Positions 39,316 through 44,841 of a stretch of 64,000 nt of DNA are shown here, piece by piece. Numbering within the stretch: position 1 is the first letter of the stretch; each line of letters begins with the position of its first letter. Below the pieces are notes generated by a model. The model searched no databases. It saw nothing but the letters and a program-made list of their open reading frames with translations, and had not been told where the DNA came from. The stretch is from an uncultured Eubacteriales bacterium (lineage in GTDB: Bacteria; Acidobacteriota; Aminicenantia; Aminicenantales; Aminicenantaceae): NCBI GenBank assembly GCA_964505785.1, contig CAZDJZ010000003.1, positions 99,186 through 163,185 on the forward strand. Reading direction: 5' to 3'. The position numbers and the translations under genes are program-made.

Positions 39316-40704
39316 TTAAGACAAATATTCATGAATGCTTTTAGCAGCCTTGCGGCCGTCGCCTAAGGCCAGGATAACTGTCGCATTACCGCGGACAGCA
39401 TCTCCGCCGGCGAACACGCCGGGTATATTTGCAGCCAGATGTTCATCTACCTGGATCTGGCCCCAGCGATTGACTTCGAGCTCCTTGGCCCGGCTTAGGA
39501 AAAGACGGTTGGGTGTGCTTCCCAACGCTTCGACCAGTGTCTCGCAATCCAAACTGTATTCGCTTCCTTCGATTTTCACAGGCCGCGGGCGCCCGCTTTC
39601 ATCCGGCTCAGATAATTCCATCTTAAACATCTCCACTTCTTTTAACCAGCCATCATCATCTCCGGTAAGCTTCTTAGGTGAAACCAATTCCTGGAAGATC
39701 ACTCCTTCCTCCAAAGCATGCTGGACTTCCTCATCTCTGGCCGGCGCTTCTTTTTTTGTGCGCCGGTAAAGAATATAAACCTTCTCTACTCCCAGCCGCA
39801 GAGCGCAGCGGGCGGCATCCATGGCCACATTCCCGGCCCCGATGATACCGATTGTCTTTCCGCATTCAATCGGCGTATCATAATCCGTAAATTTATAAGC
39901 CTTCATCAAATTGACTCTGATAAGAAATTCATTGGCGGAATAAACTCCTTTTAAATTTTCTCCCGGAATTTTCATGAAAAGCGGAGCTCCTGCCCCTGTC
40001 CCAAGAAAAACGGCCTGGTAATTTTTCAGGAGCTCGTCAAAACTCAGGTTTTGACCGACAAAAAAATTCAGCTTGATATCCACTCCGATTTCATTCAAAA
40101 AATTTATCTCATAATCAACAATTTCTGTTGGAAGCCGAAAAGCGGGTATCCCGTACTGAAGCACACCACCGGCCTTGTGGAGGGCCTCGAACATTGTTAC
40201 CTGGTAGCCCTGTCTGCGTAAATCCACGGCGCAGCTGATCCCCGCAGGACCGGACCCGACCACGGCCACTTTTTCCGGCCGTTCCCGGATATGAAATTCC
40301 TCCTTGATGCCTCTTTTCCTTGCCCAATCCGCGACAAAAGCTTCCAATTTGCCAATATTGATTCCATTTTCACGGTGATAGAGCGGGCACACCCCTTCAC
40401 ACTGGGTTTCCTGCGGGCACACTCTTCCGGTTATGGCAGGAATAGGGTTATCCCGTTTCATAATAAAAAACGCACTCCGGAAACGCCCCCAGGAAACATT
40501 CCGGATCATCGCCAGTATCTTCATATTGATGGGACAGTCACTTTCACAGGGAACTCCGCTGCATTGAATACACCGGCGGGCTTCCCGGACAACTTCGTCT
40601 TCATTGTATCCATGGGGAACAGAAAAAAAATTATGGATTCTTTTATTTGGATCCTGTTCCCGCATCGGAACCCTTGTCCCTCCCAGCTTAATCATGATCG
40701 ACAC
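39316..40704 (-). CDS. nfnB: NfnB / GltD / SudA-like NADPH-dependent FAD Fe-S oxidoreductase (large subunit)
   Basis: N-terminal PMREQDPNKRIHNF...CIQCSGVPCESDCP, and dinucleotide fold VAVVGSGPAGISCA. 462 aa. Overlaps the preceding gene. Confidence 0.85.
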   Translation of the reverse strand: MSIMIKLGGTRVPMREQDPNKRIHNFFSVPHGYNEDEVVREARRCIQCSGVPCESDCPINMKILAMIRNVSWGRFRSAFFIMKRDNPIPAITGRVCPQETQCEGVCPLYHRENGINIGKLEAFVADWARKRGIKEEFHIRERPEKVAVVGSGPAGISCAVDLRRQGYQVTMFEALHKAGGVLQYGIPAFRLPTEIVDYEINFLNEIGVDIKLNFFVGQNLSFDELLKNYQAVFLGTGAGAPLFMKIPGENLKGVYSANEFLIRVNLMKAYKFTDYDTPIECGKTIGIIGAGNVAMDAARCALRLGVEKVYILYRRTKKEAPARDEEVQHALEEGVIFQELVSPKKLTGDDDGWLKEVEMFKMELSEPDESGRPRPVKIEGSEYSLDCETLVEALGSTPNRLFLSRAKELEVNRWGQIQVDEHLAANIPGVFAGGDAVRGNATVILALGDGRKAAKSIHEYLS

Positions 40705-41548
40705 CTATTTTCCGGCGATAATCCTGTTCCGCTTTTATTTCCTTTTTTTTAAACATTTCCAGCCGGCTGATCACGTCATCGAAATCGATTTTATGCGCAT
40801 CAAATTCAGGACCGTCAATACAGGCCAGTTTCATCCTGCCGTCAATGTACGCCCGGCATCCCCCGCACATTCCTGTCCCGTCCACCATAATTGTGTTTAA
40901 ACTGGCAATTGTAGTAATATTTTTATCCTTTGTTACACGGGCAGCCTCCCTCATCATAGCCGGTGGGCCAATGGTGATCACACGGTCGACTCCAGGACCT
41001 TGGAAGCAGCTTGATTCGTCGATAACCTTTTGCAGGACATCCGTCACAAATCCCTTATGCCCACGGGATCCGTCATCCGTCGCCACCAATACATTTTGAC
41101 TGCAATCCCGCAATTCTTTTTCCAGAATCAGCATTGAGACTGTCCTGGCTCCTATAATGGTGGTTACCGTGTTGCCGGCCTGAGACAATGCTCTGACAAT
41201 AGGGTAAATGCAGGCAATCCCGGTTCCTCCTCCTACACATATCACCCGGCCGAACCGTTTTATCTCGGTTGGATTTCCCAAGGGTCCCACGCAATTCAGA
41301 ATTTGATCGCCCTCCTTCCAGGTGCTGAGTTCTAAAGTGGATTTCCCAACCACTTGGAAAATCAACGTAATCGATCCTGCGCGCACATTCACATCCGCAA
41401 CGGTTAGAGGAATCCGTTCACTTCGTTCATGCATGCGGATGATAACGAATTGTCCGGCTTGAAATCTGTCGGCCACATGAAACGCATCCAGTTCAATCAA
41501 AAATATTTCCGGGTTAAGCATCCGTTTGTGAATAATCCTGTGACTCAT
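40688..41548 (-). CDS. nfnA: NfnA / SudB-like FAD/NAD(P)-binding [2Fe-2S] subunit (PyrK-like)
   Basis: RIPLTVADV and MVDGTGMCGGCR...ACIDGPEF motifs. 286 aa. Its ATG overlaps the ferredoxin TGA (ATGA at 41545-41548). Confidence 0.85.
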   Translation of the reverse strand: MSHRIIHKRMLNPEIFLIELDAFHVADRFQAGQFVIIRMHERSERIPLTVADVNVRAGSITLIFQVVGKSTLELSTWKEGDQILNCVGPLGNPTEIKRFGRVICVGGGTGIACIYPIVRALSQAGNTVTTIIGARTVSMLILEKELRDCSQNVLVATDDGSRGHKGFVTDVLQKVIDESSCFQGPGVDRVITIGPPAMMREAARVTKDKNITTIASLNTIMVDGTGMCGGCRAYIDGRMKLACIDGPEFDAHKIDFDDVISRLEMFKKKEIKAEQDYRRKIGVDHD

Positions 41549-41772
41549 GATGCCGCCTCATTCAACTCCTCAGCCACCCAAATAGCAAAGTCGGGGCAAA
41601 ACATCTCACACAGGCCGCAATTGAGACACTTTTCCGGTTTAACAACCACAGGGGTACAGACACCGCGGCTGTTTTTGTTTTTGCCCAATTCCAAAACGCC
41701 TGTTTGGCAAACCGCCGCACATATCCCGCATCCTTTACAGCGGTCCTGAATAACGACAACTTCAACTTTCAT
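41545..41772 (-). CDS. 2x[4Fe-4S] ferredoxin (OFOR delta-subunit-like, 75 aa)
   Basis: CKGCGICAAVC and CLNCGLCEMFCP. I chose the start at MKVEVVV (41772). The track ORF start at 41853 lies inside the upstream gene. Confidence 0.8.
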   Translation of the reverse strand: MKVEVVVIQDRCKGCGICAAVCQTGVLELGKNKNSRGVCTPVVVKPEKCLNCGLCEMFCPDFAIWVAEELNEAAS

Positions 41773-42577
41773 GATGATTGAGTTCCTTGTCTCCGGCAGC
41801 AGGCGTAAACCGGCCCAAAATAATGGGGCCGGGACAACGCAAGTCCATTTCACTCGAGGGTTCCTGATAACGCATCTCAGAAAAACGATTGAGAAAAGAC
41901 ATTCTTTCCACCGGGTTCAAAATTTCTCTGTTTTCAGCCCGGAATATCACACAGGGCGAGACCATCTCAACAACAGACAACCCATCCGCCGACAGGGCAT
42001 CAATCAAGGTATGCCGCATCCATCCTGCTCTGAGAGGATTCCAGCGGGCAATCAATCCGGCGCCAGCCTTGTAAGAAAAATAGGGAATATTAAAGGGCAA
42101 ATCACTTTCTCCGTCTATGCTGGAACGCATGAAAGGCGTCAACGGATAGGCCCTGTCCCGGCTCAAGGTATAGATTATATTATTGATGATGATCAAAACC
42201 AGGTCATCCTGATTTTTTCCCGCGTCCAGAATATCTTGCCCCCCGGTTAAAAGCATATCGGAGTTGTTAATCACAGCAACCGCTTTTGTCTGCAGCTTTT
42301 TTCTTTTCCACTCCGCAGCGGCGGCAACAACAAATCCATTGTCAGCCGAATGCGCAGACACACTCAAACAATCAGAGACTCTTCCCGTGCATCCGGTTCC
42401 GCTGAATACACTGAGTTGAGATTGAATGCCCATTTCCTTAGCCGCTTCAAACAAAGCATAGAGAGCGGTTCCGATTCCGCAGCCGGAGCACCAAACTGTA
42501 GGAAAAGCATCCAGATTCAGGAAATCATCCTTGGGATGAGTTCGGTCATCTGCATTATTCTTTACATCTGGAATCAT
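41762..42577 (-). CDS. 2-oxoacid:ferredoxin oxidoreductase beta-subunit-like protein, paralog 2 (non-canonical ThDP motif)
   Basis: WCSGCGIG, SGTGCTG and SPC cysteines are placed as in KorB/PorB. The ThDP/Mg region reads VAVINNSDMLLTGGQDILDAGKNQDDLVLIIINNIIY, where GDGD...NN is expected. Confidence 0.7.
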   Translation of the reverse strand: MIPDVKNNADDRTHPKDDFLNLDAFPTVWCSGCGIGTALYALFEAAKEMGIQSQLSVFSGTGCTGRVSDCLSVSAHSADNGFVVAAAAEWKRKKLQTKAVAVINNSDMLLTGGQDILDAGKNQDDLVLIIINNIIYTLSRDRAYPLTPFMRSSIDGESDLPFNIPYFSYKAGAGLIARWNPLRAGWMRHTLIDALSADGLSVVEMVSPCVIFRAENREILNPVERMSFLNRFSEMRYQEPSSEMDLRCPGPIILGRFTPAAGDKELNHHES

Positions 42578-43350
42578 TTTTTTTCCGAAAAATGGCCGAC
42601 ATAAAATTCATTGAGGTCCCGAAGTTCCAGTTCTTCCCAGGCAGCTTGATGATTAATACAAGCATTGTTTAAAAACAGCTTCATTCTATCCAGGTTTCCC
42701 GAAGGGTTTTCCGCCCCGGCATAGTACATGAGACAGGGGGATACGATTTCCAAGAATGAAAATCCTGGCTTTAGCAAGGCCGCACGCAAGGAGGACATTA
42801 GGCGGCGGCAATGCAATGGAGTCCAGCGGGCAATCACCGAAGCTCCGCTTCGATTGGCAAATGCGGGCAGATTGAAAAGAACCTCCGGCTTCGACAGATT
42901 CCGGCATCTTTTTTGAAGACTGAGAACATGGAAGATAAAACTATTGAAATAAACAACGATCACATTTCGGCCGGAATGACAGGCCTTGACCATTCCTTCC
43001 AGGCCGTGAACCATAATATCAGAATCCTGAATAAAAATAATGGTTTTCGTGCCCGGCCTTATTTCCCTGCTGTTTAGAGCGGTTAAGAAAGGATCTTTCC
43101 CTTGAGCATGAATTGTATTTAATTTAACATACCCGATTATTTTCCCTGTACAGCCCAGTCCGCTTGAAACCAGCCGGATCTTTTCAAGAGGTAAAGAATT
43201 TTTTTTCAGGGATTGGATAAACGTATTAACGACTATTCCAATGCCGCATCCGGAACACCAAACAGAAGGCATCGCATCAAATTTCAAAAAGAGCGCATCC
43301 GGATGCTCTTCCCTAATTGCCATAACCAGAAATTTTGGCGTATCAATCAC
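42574..43350 (-). CDS. 2-oxoacid:ferredoxin oxidoreductase beta-subunit-like protein, paralog 1 (non-canonical ThDP motif)
   Basis: WCSGCGIG, SGLGCTG and SPC cysteines. The ThDP/Mg region reads IIFIQDSDIMVHGLEGMVKACHSGRNVIVVYFNSFIF. GTG start with no obvious RBS. Overlaps paralog 2 by 4 nt. Confidence 0.65.
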   Translation of the reverse strand: MIDTPKFLVMAIREEHPDALFLKFDAMPSVWCSGCGIGIVVNTFIQSLKKNSLPLEKIRLVSSGLGCTGKIIGYVKLNTIHAQGKDPFLTALNSREIRPGTKTIIFIQDSDIMVHGLEGMVKACHSGRNVIVVYFNSFIFHVLSLQKRCRNLSKPEVLFNLPAFANRSGASVIARWTPLHCRRLMSSLRAALLKPGFSFLEIVSPCLMYYAGAENPSGNLDRMKLFLNNACINHQAAWEELELRDLNEFYVGHFSEKK

Positions 43351-43479: not shown

Positions 43480-44841
43480 TCATTCAATATTGTAATTTTT
43501 CATCTTATAACTCAACATTCTTTCCGTCAGCCCCAAAGCACGGGCTGTCCGGGCTTTAATTCCCCCATTTTCCCGCAGAGCCCTTTTTATTTCCCTGGTT
43601 TCCAGCCGTTTGATTTTTTCCGGCAGGGAAAGGTCTTCAGTACAGAGGTCTCCTTCCTTCTTTTCTTCTAAAAATACCGGAAGGTCGCTTCTGACGATAT
43701 CCTCTTCTTCGGCAAAAACCACAGCCCGTTCAATAATATTTTCCAGCTCCCGTATATTCCCGGGAAAAGAATAATTCATAAGCTGGTTCATGGCTTCCCT
43801 TGATACTCCCCGGATTTCCTTCTTCTCCCTCCGGCTGTATTTCCGGATAAAATGATCGGTAAGAGCCGGGATGTCTTCTTTCCTTTCCCGCAACGGCGGG
43901 ACATGGATTCGAACCACATTCAGCCGGAAATACAAGTCTTGACGGAATTGATTTTGCCGCATCAGATCTTCAAGGTCCCGGTTCGTCGCGGCCATGATCC
44001 GGACATCAGCCTGAATGGGCTTTGAAGAACCCAGCCGGAAAAAATTCCGGTCCTGGAGAAAGCGCAGCAATTTCACCTGACTTGAAAGCGGCATATCTCC
44101 AATTTCATCCAGAAAAAGCGTCCCCCCTCCGGCTCCTTCAAATTTCCCTGTTTTGCGTTCATGAGCGCCTGTGAACGCACCCTTTTCCGATCCGAATAAT
44201 TCACTCTCTAATAGAGTTTCAGGAAAAGACGGAATATTTACCGCCATAAAGGGGCCTTCTTTTCTCCGGGAAGAATAATGAATGCTGCGAGCGACCAGGT
44301 CTTTTCCGGTTCCGGTTTCCCCGGATATCAAAACCGTGGCTTCGCTTTCGGACGCTTTGACCATAAGATGCACAACTCTCTCCATTGCAGCGGATTGAAA
44401 AACAAAATTTTTTGCACTGAATTTTTGTTCCAGTGAACGGCGCAGCTGCTTCACTTCCCTTCGCAGCTTTTGACGCTCCAGCGCCCGGGAAATAACCAAT
44501 AAAAAATTATCAAAATCAATGGGCTTCGGGATAAAATCATAAACACCTTTTTTCATGGCTTCAACCGCGGTTTCGACATTGCCGTAGGCTGTTACCATAA
44601 TGATGGTTATAAGAGGATTCGAAAATAGAATCTTTCGTGTAACATCCAGCCCTGTTTCTTTTTCCAGTCGAAAGTCAACTACAGCGAGATCCACTTGTTG
44701 ATTCTCTAAAATCTGAAGGGCACCCCGGCTTCCGGCTGCTTCAAAGACCTGGTAATTCTCGCCTTCTAGATTCTCCCTGATCAATTCGCGCTGCATGGCA
44801 TCGTCTTCAATGATTAGAATATTCGCTCGGCTCATTTTCAT
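43480..44841 (-). CDS. sigma-54-dependent response regulator (NtrC family: receiver + AAA+ + Fis-type HTH)
   Basis: Receiver with DLAVVDFRLE. AAA+ Walker A SGETGTGKDLVA and the sigma-54 contact loop GSEKGAFTGA. C-terminal HTH ...ARALGLTERMLSYKMK. Confidence 0.9.
   Translation of the reverse strand: MKMSRANILIIEDDAMQRELIRENLEGENYQVFEAAGSRGALQILENQQVDLAVVDFRLEKETGLDVTRKILFSNPLITIIMVTAYGNVETAVEAMKKGVYDFIPKPIDFDNFLLVISRALERQKLRREVKQLRRSLEQKFSAKNFVFQSAAMERVVHLMVKASESEATVLISGETGTGKDLVARSIHYSSRRKEGPFMAVNIPSFPETLLESELFGSEKGAFTGAHERKTGKFEGAGGGTLFLDEIGDMPLSSQVKLLRFLQDRNFFRLGSSKPIQADVRIMAATNRDLEDLMRQNQFRQDLYFRLNVVRIHVPPLRERKEDIPALTDHFIRKYSRREKKEIRGVSREAMNQLMNYSFPGNIRELENIIERAVVFAEEEDIVRSDLPVFLEEKKEGDLCTEDLSLPEKIKRLETREIKRALRENGGIKARTARALGLTERMLSYKMKNYNIE

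Follow-up and report, generated by a model that had tools for sequence, protein, structure and literature searches.

Two 2-oxoacid:ferredoxin oxidoreductase beta-like paralogs with altered thiamine diphosphate motifs, encoded with a dedicated NfnAB pair: candidate iron-sulfur subunits of an Nfn-type complex

A beta subunit of a 2-oxoacid:ferredoxin oxidoreductase (OFOR) normally carries both a proximal iron-sulfur cluster and a binding site for thiamine diphosphate (ThDP) and Mg. What is the role of such a subunit when the cluster site is kept and the cofactor site is altered? This question is raised by a stretch of 64,000 nucleotides (nt) from an uncultured Eubacteriales bacterium (assembly GCA_964505785.1, contig CAZDJZ010000003.1, positions 99,186 to 163,185; Aminicenantaceae in GTDB), referred to here as the window. 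Two adjacent genes on its minus strand encode OorB/KorB-like paralogs, beta1 and beta2, and are followed by genes for a ferredoxin (delta) and for NfnA- and NfnB-like flavoproteins. The analysis favors, with a probability of roughly 0.6, the interpretation that beta1 and beta2 lack ThDP and serve as Fe-S subunits on the low-potential branch of a complex of the Nfn type.

Conserved cluster ligands and altered ThDP/Mg site

The register of beta1 and beta2 was taken from HMMER, MAFFT and Foldseek alignments, and both proteins were searched with phmmer against all Protein Data Bank (PDB) chains. The best PDB sequence match of both paralogs was OorB from Helicobacter pylori (8ys5_C), with E-values of about 1e-19 to 1e-20. 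The two genes and the blocks aligned with this reference, from N to C terminus, are as follows.

42574..43323, minus strand: beta1 (paralog 1), an OorB/KorB-derived [4Fe-4S] protein without GDG, 249 amino acids (aa) from the ATG at 43323
41762..42577, minus strand: beta2 (paralog 2), an OorB/KorB-derived [4Fe-4S] protein, 271 aa, intact open reading frame (ORF)
OorB (8ys5_C): WCWGCG, SGIGCSGR, HTTHGRA, SGDGDGFAIGGNH, VNNFIYGLTNSQ, HSNC
beta1: WCSGCG, SGLGCTGK, HAQGKDP, IQDSDIMVHGLEG, FNSFIFHVLSLQ, VSPC
beta2: WCSGCG, SGTGCTGR, HSADNGF, INNSDMLLTGGQD, INNIIYTLSRDR, VSPC

The ORF of beta1 is also intact, and it can be read from a GTG at 43350 (43350..42574) as well. The ATG at 43323 is the likely true start, because a 96%-identical homolog (P0040) is also 249 aa long.

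In the cryo-electron microscopy structure of OorB, Cys19, Cys22, Cys53 and Cys202 were assigned as the ligands of the proximal [4Fe-4S] cluster (PMC12307629). These residues align with C23, C26, C58 and C197 in beta1 (249-aa numbering) and with C30, C33, C63 and C209 in beta2. The four cysteines are 100% conserved in both families and are kept in all full-length members. An earlier interpretation of the window, made from its letters alone (the sequence-only reading), had proposed that both paralogs keep all four ligands, and the comparison with OorB confirmed this. The positions of the cluster and cofactor motifs in the window are listed below.

43237..43260, minus strand: beta1 WCSGCGIG with the first two cluster cysteines, C23 and C26, aligned with Cys19 and Cys22 of OorB; 100% kept in the beta1 family
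43150-43152, minus strand: third cluster cysteine of beta1, C58, aligned with OorB
43018..43032, minus strand: beta1 IQDSD at the position of SGDGD; the Asp that corresponds to the Mg ligand remains, and neither Gly does
42940..42948, minus strand: beta1 FNS at the position of VNN; Ser replaces the second Asn, which ligates Mg in the Sulfolobus tokodaii OFOR (StOFOR)
42733..42741, minus strand: beta1 SPC with the fourth cluster cysteine, C197, aligned with OorB
42470..42493, minus strand: beta2 WCSGCGIG with C30 and C33, aligned with OorB
42389-42391, minus strand: third cluster cysteine of beta2, C63, aligned with OorB
42257..42271, minus strand: beta2 INNSD at the position of SGDGD; Asn replaces the Mg-ligand Asp, as it does in 98% of beta2 sequences
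42179..42187, minus strand: beta2 INN; the NN pair is intact here and invariant among beta2 sequences
41951..41959, minus strand: beta2 SPC with the fourth cluster cysteine, C209, aligned with OorB

The Mg2+ site of StOFOR is formed by GDG 89b-91b and Asn118b, and the Glu that activates N1' (Glu294) is located on the alpha subunit (PMC5020499). At the Mg-site positions beta1 carries Q-D-S and Ser, and beta2 carries N-N-S and Asn. The motif GDG-X(24-27)-NN is absent from both proteins, which show QDS...NS (beta1) and NNS...NN (beta2) instead; both Gly residues of GDG are lost across the two families. The blocks HTTHGRA, IGGNH and MTGGQ are gone in both paralogs as well. The sequence-only reading was therefore correct in describing the GDG...NN segment as altered (GDGD to QDSD in beta1 and to NNSD in beta2, NN to NS and NN, respectively) and the HGRA-type segment as unrecognizable (HTTHGRA to HAQGKDP in beta1 and to HSADNGF in beta2). 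Its register, set by eye and named as a possible source of error, agreed with the alignment to solved OFOR beta subunits.

Family models and predicted fold

Comparison with curated models revealed scores far below the family cut-offs. For PRK09628 (OorB), beta1 reached 88.9 bits and beta2 101.2 bits against a cut-off of 364, and for TIGR02177 (PorB_KorB) the scores were 51.0 and 70.5 bits against a cut-off of 261.9. The Pfam family TPP_enzyme_C (PF02775) gave no hit for beta1 and a marginal hit for beta2 (22.7 bits, with a gathering cut-off of 21.9). Beta1 and beta2 are unfit for annotation as OFOR beta subunits, because they fall short of the hidden Markov model (HMM) cut-offs, lack the GDG-NN motif and have no alpha partner.

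Single-chain AlphaFold2 models were built on the family alignments and had pLDDT values of 85.5 (beta1) and 82.5 (beta2). In Foldseek searches with these models, OFOR beta chains of the OorB/KorB type headed both lists, with TM scores of 0.63-0.76. The best PDB match of the beta1 model was 8ys5_C (TM 0.76), and the best matches of the beta2 model were 6n2n_B and 8ys5_C. According to these predictions, both paralogs have the PP-domain fold of OFOR domain VI.

Conservation and phylogeny of the beta1 and beta2 families

Searches of a collection of 5.8 billion proteins yielded 39 relatives of beta2 and 106 relatives of beta1. Among the best 150 matches of an HMM search of 1.84 billion representatives, about 11 beta2-type, 28 beta1-type and 100 canonical clusters (50% identity) were found. 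The E-value and bit score of the beta2 profile failed to sort the family from canonical OorB, since canonical sequences scored higher (about 260 bits) than beta1 (221 bits); motif columns, the tandem arrangement and the tree were therefore used to assign members. In the joint alignment with canonical betas, every sequence without GDG fitted one of two patterns. The beta1 pattern is x-N-D-x-D ... I-N-(N/S)-x-x-(Y/F) ... (E)-H-K ... H-x-R-R, and the beta2 pattern is x-N-N-A-D ... I-N-N-x-I-Y ... T-P-F-x-R ... R-A-G-W. Because these patterns are kept in about 140 homologs, they do not reflect chance drift. The beta1/beta2 family is real, small and coherent. The beta1 homolog of one relative (G227) seemed to contain an in-frame TGA, which was considered as a selenocysteine codon and rejected: the ORF is intact, and the stop lies upstream of the start.

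In a maximum-likelihood tree, beta1 and beta2 formed one clade with a support of 1.0 and a long stem, nested inside the OorB/KorB-type betas. The nearest canonical betas in this tree were sequences from WOR-3, Stahlbacteria and Zixibacteria. Beta2 was monophyletic (support, 0.987), and the two proteins of the window are 28% identical. The tree points to an early divergence of beta1 and beta2, that is, to an ancient duplication.

To describe what was lost, the two families were compared at the 57 columns in which 85 canonical betas show at least 98% conservation. Both paralogs keep 18 of the 57, namely the four Cys and the Gly-rich loops, D93, N118, GA..R and E193. Three more are kept in beta1 alone and three in beta2 alone (N119 among them). 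The remaining 33 are lost in both, including G90, G92, H63-R68, I97-H101, M124-Q128 and R107/N109 (RRN), and there is a further 3-aa deletion as well as the loss of a C-terminal tail of roughly 25 residues. The former Mg-ligand positions are nearly uniform within each family: D 97%, D 97%, N 99% and then N/S in beta1, and N 98%, D 100%, N 100% and N 100% in beta2.

Low scores to family models would also be seen if beta1 and beta2 were decaying duplicates, pseudogenes in the making. This explanation is hardly credible, since the frames are intact and translationally coupled, each family retains about 25-30 invariant columns at 35-45% pairwise identity, and the genes are kept in Bacteria and in one archaeon.

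Operon structure and absence of an alpha subunit

ORF calling in the window revealed five tightly packed minus-strand genes in the order beta1-beta2-delta-NfnA-NfnB. The three genes that follow the paralogs are as follows.

41545..41772, minus strand: delta, an OorD-like ferredoxin with 2x[4Fe-4S], 75 aa, eight Cys
40688..41548, minus strand: NfnA/NfnS-like FAD/[2Fe-2S] subunit, match to NF004862
39316..40695, minus strand: NfnB/NfnL-like FAD/2x[4Fe-4S] NADPH subunit, match to TIGR01316, member of a module-specific NfnB clade

All four gene junctions overlap, by 4 nt (beta1/beta2, ATGA), 11 nt (beta2/delta), 4 nt (delta/NfnA, ATGA) and 8 nt (NfnA/NfnB), and the genes of the operon are predicted to be translationally coupled. 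The eight Cys of delta are arranged in two motifs, and Pfam Fer4 families match. Its best NCBIfam models are OGOR_delta (62 bits) and OorD (61 bits), both below the respective cut-offs of 125 and 93. Upstream of beta1, a gene for an NtrC-type activator ends at 43480. A sigma-54 promoter was sought in the 129-nt gap upstream of beta1 and rejected: a match to TGG-N8-TTGC is absent, and the nearest look-alike, TGGCTTGACAACTTGT, has the wrong spacing and lacks the GC.

The gene context in other genomes was determined by a scan of GTDB species representatives, which yielded 80 loci that were classified by ORF calling and BLAST. Nine loci with a pair lacking GDG (seven from the scan and two fetched earlier) came from Aminicenantes, Acidobacteriota, two Eubacteriales-labeled metagenome-assembled genomes, a Thermoplasmatales archaeon, WOR-3 and two metagenome contigs; three genomes of the window's family and genome G390 brought the number of classified loci to 13. 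The order beta1-beta2-delta-nfnA-nfnB was found in all 13 of these loci and in the window. In one of them (L016), beta1 is apparently fragmented and an additional FlpD/Fer4 gene is inserted. A gene for an alpha subunit (POR_N/Pyr domain) was present neither in the operon of the window nor in the 13 related loci. At the canonical loci of the same scan, an alpha gene lies just upstream of the GDG-bearing beta in 68 of 73 cases, with delta usually before alpha.

A profile search of 401 genomes of the phylum detected the tandem pair in four of the six genomes of the window's family, or in five of six when G390, identified via NfnB, is included; outside the family no tandem pair was seen in this 401-genome sample. 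The five-gene module is rare and patchily distributed. The genes flanking the bacterial five-gene unit vary (RadC, FTHFS, thiolase, ECF sigma, sigma-54 two-component system), and a constant additional catalytic partner was not found among them.

These data bear on the possibility that beta1 and beta2 are ThDP-dependent OFOR betas with an unusual motif whose alpha subunit is encoded elsewhere. The Asp kept in beta1, the weak TPP_enzyme_C match of most family members and the several alpha subunits of the genome would fit such a role. The other contigs of the same genome encode four canonical alpha/beta pairs, a fused pyruvate:ferredoxin oxidoreductase (PFOR) and an IOR-like protein. There is no orphan alpha, because each alpha is paired with its own adjacent canonical beta. 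No alpha occurred in the loci examined, the C-terminal tail is missing along with 33 of the 57 invariant columns, and 98% of the beta2 members carry Asn in place of the Mg-ligand Asp. The equivalent Asp-to-Asn change reportedly abolishes cofactor binding in pyruvate decarboxylase of Zymomonas mobilis. A ThDP-dependent role is accordingly regarded as very unlikely. Because an alpha partner is missing and most residues of the ThDP pocket are lost, beta1 and beta2 very probably neither bind nor activate ThDP and do not decarboxylate 2-oxoacids.

A dedicated NfnAB pair

The NfnB-like protein scored 541.7 bits with TIGR01316 (cut-off, 471.75), and the NfnA-like protein scored 372.3 bits with NF004862 (cut-off, 220). 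Both align over the full length and colinearly with NfnI of Pyrococcus furiosus, NfnB with the large chain 5jca_L (533 bits) and NfnA with the small subunit 5jca_S (285 bits). By these sequence matches, the downstream pair is assigned to the NfnAB family.

Four relatives (G227, G315, G398 and G390) carry two NfnB genes, a housekeeping copy (600-640 bits to TIGR01316) and a module copy (537-553 bits). In the NfnB tree, the module copies of all lineages formed one clade and are 66-88% identical to the copy of the window. The housekeeping copies of the same genomes formed another clade and are 47-51% identical to it. This separate Nfn lineage therefore argues for a dedicated partnership. In the genome of the window, the module copy alone was seen; the assembly is 89.8% complete, and the housekeeping NfnB may be missing from it or truly lost.

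A linkage of this kind could also arise if beta1, beta2 and delta formed a free-standing, polyferredoxin-like carrier that is co-regulated with NfnAB as its redox partner or adaptor and is not stably bound to it. The fusions observed are consistent with this, as they join beta2 to delta, and no fusion to NfnA or NfnB was found. The beta2-delta fusions occur in two lineages, G390 (L104:6144-7340, a divergent version) and the representative P0169, and in both a long insertion (about 40 and 85 aa) separates the NNxD half of the motif from the NN half. It also fits that, at three loci (L101-L103), the beta-like genes have an 87-aa ferredoxin of their own and lie a few kilobases from nfnAB. A loose carrier explains less readily the strict gene order with overlap at every junction and the module-specific NfnB lineage that travels with the beta-like genes across phyla. 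It is considered improbable.

Proposed role of beta1 and beta2

In the favored model, beta1 and beta2 are an old duplicated pair derived from the OorB/KorB beta (PP domain plus proximal [4Fe-4S] cluster) of a four-subunit OFOR, and each would still hold a single [4Fe-4S] cluster. With the two clusters expected in the OorD-like ferredoxin, the three proteins would make up an electron-transfer module of four clusters. The module is predicted to be co-translated with the dedicated NfnAB paralog, would most likely be bound to it, and would be positioned on the low-potential ferredoxin side of NfnB, where free ferredoxin usually docks. A five-subunit complex is suggested by the conserved cluster site, by delta and its fusion to beta2, by the overlapping genes and by the private NfnAB lineage. 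From this evidence we infer that ThDP is absent, that beta1, beta2 and delta physically associate with NfnAB, and in which direction and to what end electrons would flow.

Several observations weigh against this model. TPP_enzyme_C matches at E <= 0.001 were obtained for 26 of 36 beta1 and 24 of 24 beta2 family members, although such a match mirrors the fold rather than cofactor competence. Beta1 keeps the Asp together with Asn/Ser, and its Ser could still ligate a metal, so that a diphosphate-bearing ligand could be held in beta1. In the PFOR of Desulfovibrio africanus, the corresponding metal site is made up of Asp, Thr and a backbone carbonyl; because a Thr serves there, the Ser of beta1 is not disqualifying. 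Operon linkage and the fusion with delta fall short of proof that NfnAB is bound. In some genomes a beta-like gene adjoins a POR gamma-like gene, which the model does not explain. Finally, positions 91, 93, 118 and 119 are at about the 88th-91st conservation percentile in each family, whereas the remaining positions of the old pocket are near or below the median.

This last point modifies the conclusion of the sequence-only reading that a catalytic subunit had been turned into a redox scaffold. The conversion itself agrees with the fold, the retention of all cluster ligands, the loss of 33 of 57 columns, the lack of an alpha subunit and the electron-transfer partners. The cofactor site is not simply degenerate, however, with its Mg-ligand positions near the 90th percentile. 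It was re-specified rather than abolished, because these positions are conserved, distinguish the paralogs and remain distinct in L101 although the N-terminal halves are homogenized there. What survives at the former Mg ligands may be a small site, polar or metal-binding, or else a hydrogen-bonded core with a structural function.

The same site gives room to a different explanation, in which the former ThDP/Mg pocket was rebuilt to bind a new cofactor, metal or substrate and beta1-beta2 is the catalytic end of the system instead of a passive wire. Besides the conservation of the four positions, the systematic differences between the paralogs (D versus N, N/S versus N, and also HxRR versus RAGW and xHK versus a variable segment) speak for it. 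They persist in L101 despite gene conversion of the first ~95 residues, and the bacterial five-gene unit has no other candidate catalytic subunit. The poorly conserved shell beyond the four positions speaks against a defined large ligand, some lineages tolerate insertions of 40-85 aa between the motif halves, and new conserved Cys or His clusters are lacking. Moreover, D93 and N118 are invariant in canonical betas too and may be purely structural. A rebuilt pocket is thus possible but unlikely. The same low likelihood is given to an extension of this idea, a new class of five-subunit bifurcating enzyme in which an OFOR-derived PP:PP pseudo-heterodimer would carry a new site reduced by the very low-potential electron of the bifurcating FAD in NfnB, the module being reused with HdrA/HdrBC in other lineages.

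Variant arrangements and related loci

At several loci the ThDP-free candidates have additional neighbors. In the Thermoplasmatales archaeon (CP070724), beta1 is immediately preceded by genes for an HdrC-like protein with an N-terminal winged helix and for an HdrB-like CCG protein (L001:5529-7194). The archaeal copy is possibly damaged, because its NfnB was called at 227 aa and a transposase is nearby. At L016, genes for an aldehyde dehydrogenase, HdrA and MvhD follow after the FlpD/ferredoxin insertion.

At L101-L103, the beta2-type gene stands in the order ferredoxin (87 aa)-beta-delta-NfnA-NfnB-HdrA. The beta1-type gene follows 3 kb further on as ferredoxin (87 aa)-beta, with HdrC, HdrB and a large fusion of HdrA, NuoF and GltD after it. 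Directly behind the beta1-type gene, L101 (7767-8375) and L103 (7786-8382) have a POR gamma-like gene (PF01558), with no alpha nearby; in these two loci, genes for a histidine kinase and a response regulator, HdrC, HdrB and the HdrA/NuoF/GltD fusion come after the gamma-like gene. Within L101 (403-1442 and 6735-7774), the two 87-aa ferredoxins and the first ~95 beta residues are identical, which points to a segmental duplication or gene conversion. The C-terminal halves are still distinct, with SNNID and RAGW in beta2 and SNDVD and HTRR in beta1. All partners in these variant clusters (HdrA, HdrBC and MvhD-type) belong to the toolkit of flavin-based electron bifurcation.

Two other arrangements were observed in WOR-3/Stahlbacteria. 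At L025-L030 (e.g., L025:9328-10164), the order is delta-alpha-beta-alpha'-beta', and beta' is a mirror image of the window proteins. It has no CxxC, SDI for GIGC and APG for SPC, and thus none of the four cluster Cys; it has GD- for GDG, keeps HTxRGRA, GGNH and RRN, and has its own alpha'. At L034:1473-5284 (Stahlbacteria), a canonical GDG-bearing beta close to the beta1/beta2 clade is followed directly by housekeeping-type nfnA and nfnB. This locus suggests a possible model for an ancestral OFOR-Nfn linkage, a route by which the module may have arisen.

Significance and comparison with known systems

OFORs and NfnAB are well-studied central enzymes of the ferredoxin/NADH/NADPH balance in anaerobes. 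If the five proteins do form one complex, it would extend the known architectures of flavin-based electron bifurcation and would show cleanly, in a natural case, how a subunit of a ThDP enzyme can be reused as an Fe-S module. Current annotations call proteins of the beta1/beta2 type "2-oxoglutarate ferredoxin oxidoreductase subunit beta" or "thiamine pyrophosphate-dependent enzyme," so that too many OFORs are counted when the metabolism of Aminicenantes, Acidobacteriota, WOR-3 and some archaea is reconstructed. No description of beta paralogs without alpha or ThDP, or of their link to Nfn, was found in the literature searched. As far as found, an OFOR beta lineage lacking the ThDP motif and the alpha partner, and an Nfn paralog always encoded with three Fe-S subunits, are undescribed.

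Like OorB of the H. pylori OorDABC complex (8ys5; PMC12307629) and KorB/PorB, beta1 and beta2 have the PP-domain fold, the four Cys ligands and an accompanying OorD-like ferredoxin, and they share with OorB the blocks FNxP, GA..ARW and E..SPC. They differ from OorB in lacking GDG, HTTHGRA, IGGNH, RRN, MTGGQ and the C-terminal tail, in the 3-aa deletion and in having neither an alpha nor a gamma partner; furthermore, they occur as two diverged paralogs and reach roughly a quarter of the model cut-offs. The downstream pair resembles known Nfn in being full-length and colinear, and the proposed complex would share its bifurcating flavoprotein core. Known Nfn consists of two subunits and uses free ferredoxin, whereas the NfnB of the module belongs to a lineage of its own and invariably comes with three additional Fe-S proteins.

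Couplings of an OFOR with a flavoprotein, such as the 2-oxoglutarate:NADP+ oxidoreductase of Azoarcus evansii or the arrangement at L034, likewise link OFOR-derived Fe-S subunits to an NAD(P)H flavoprotein of the NfnB/GltD type. Those systems keep the alpha subunit, the ThDP motifs and the 2-oxoacid chemistry, all of which the module has lost. The two-subunit StOFOR (5b46/5b48; PMC5020499) served as the standard of comparison for the CxGC loop, for the Mg site and for the fold of the beta subunit. In StOFOR, ThDP is bound between Glu294a of the alpha subunit and the beta subunit; the module described here has no alpha subunit, and each of its paralogs carries a substitution at one of the Mg-ligand positions.

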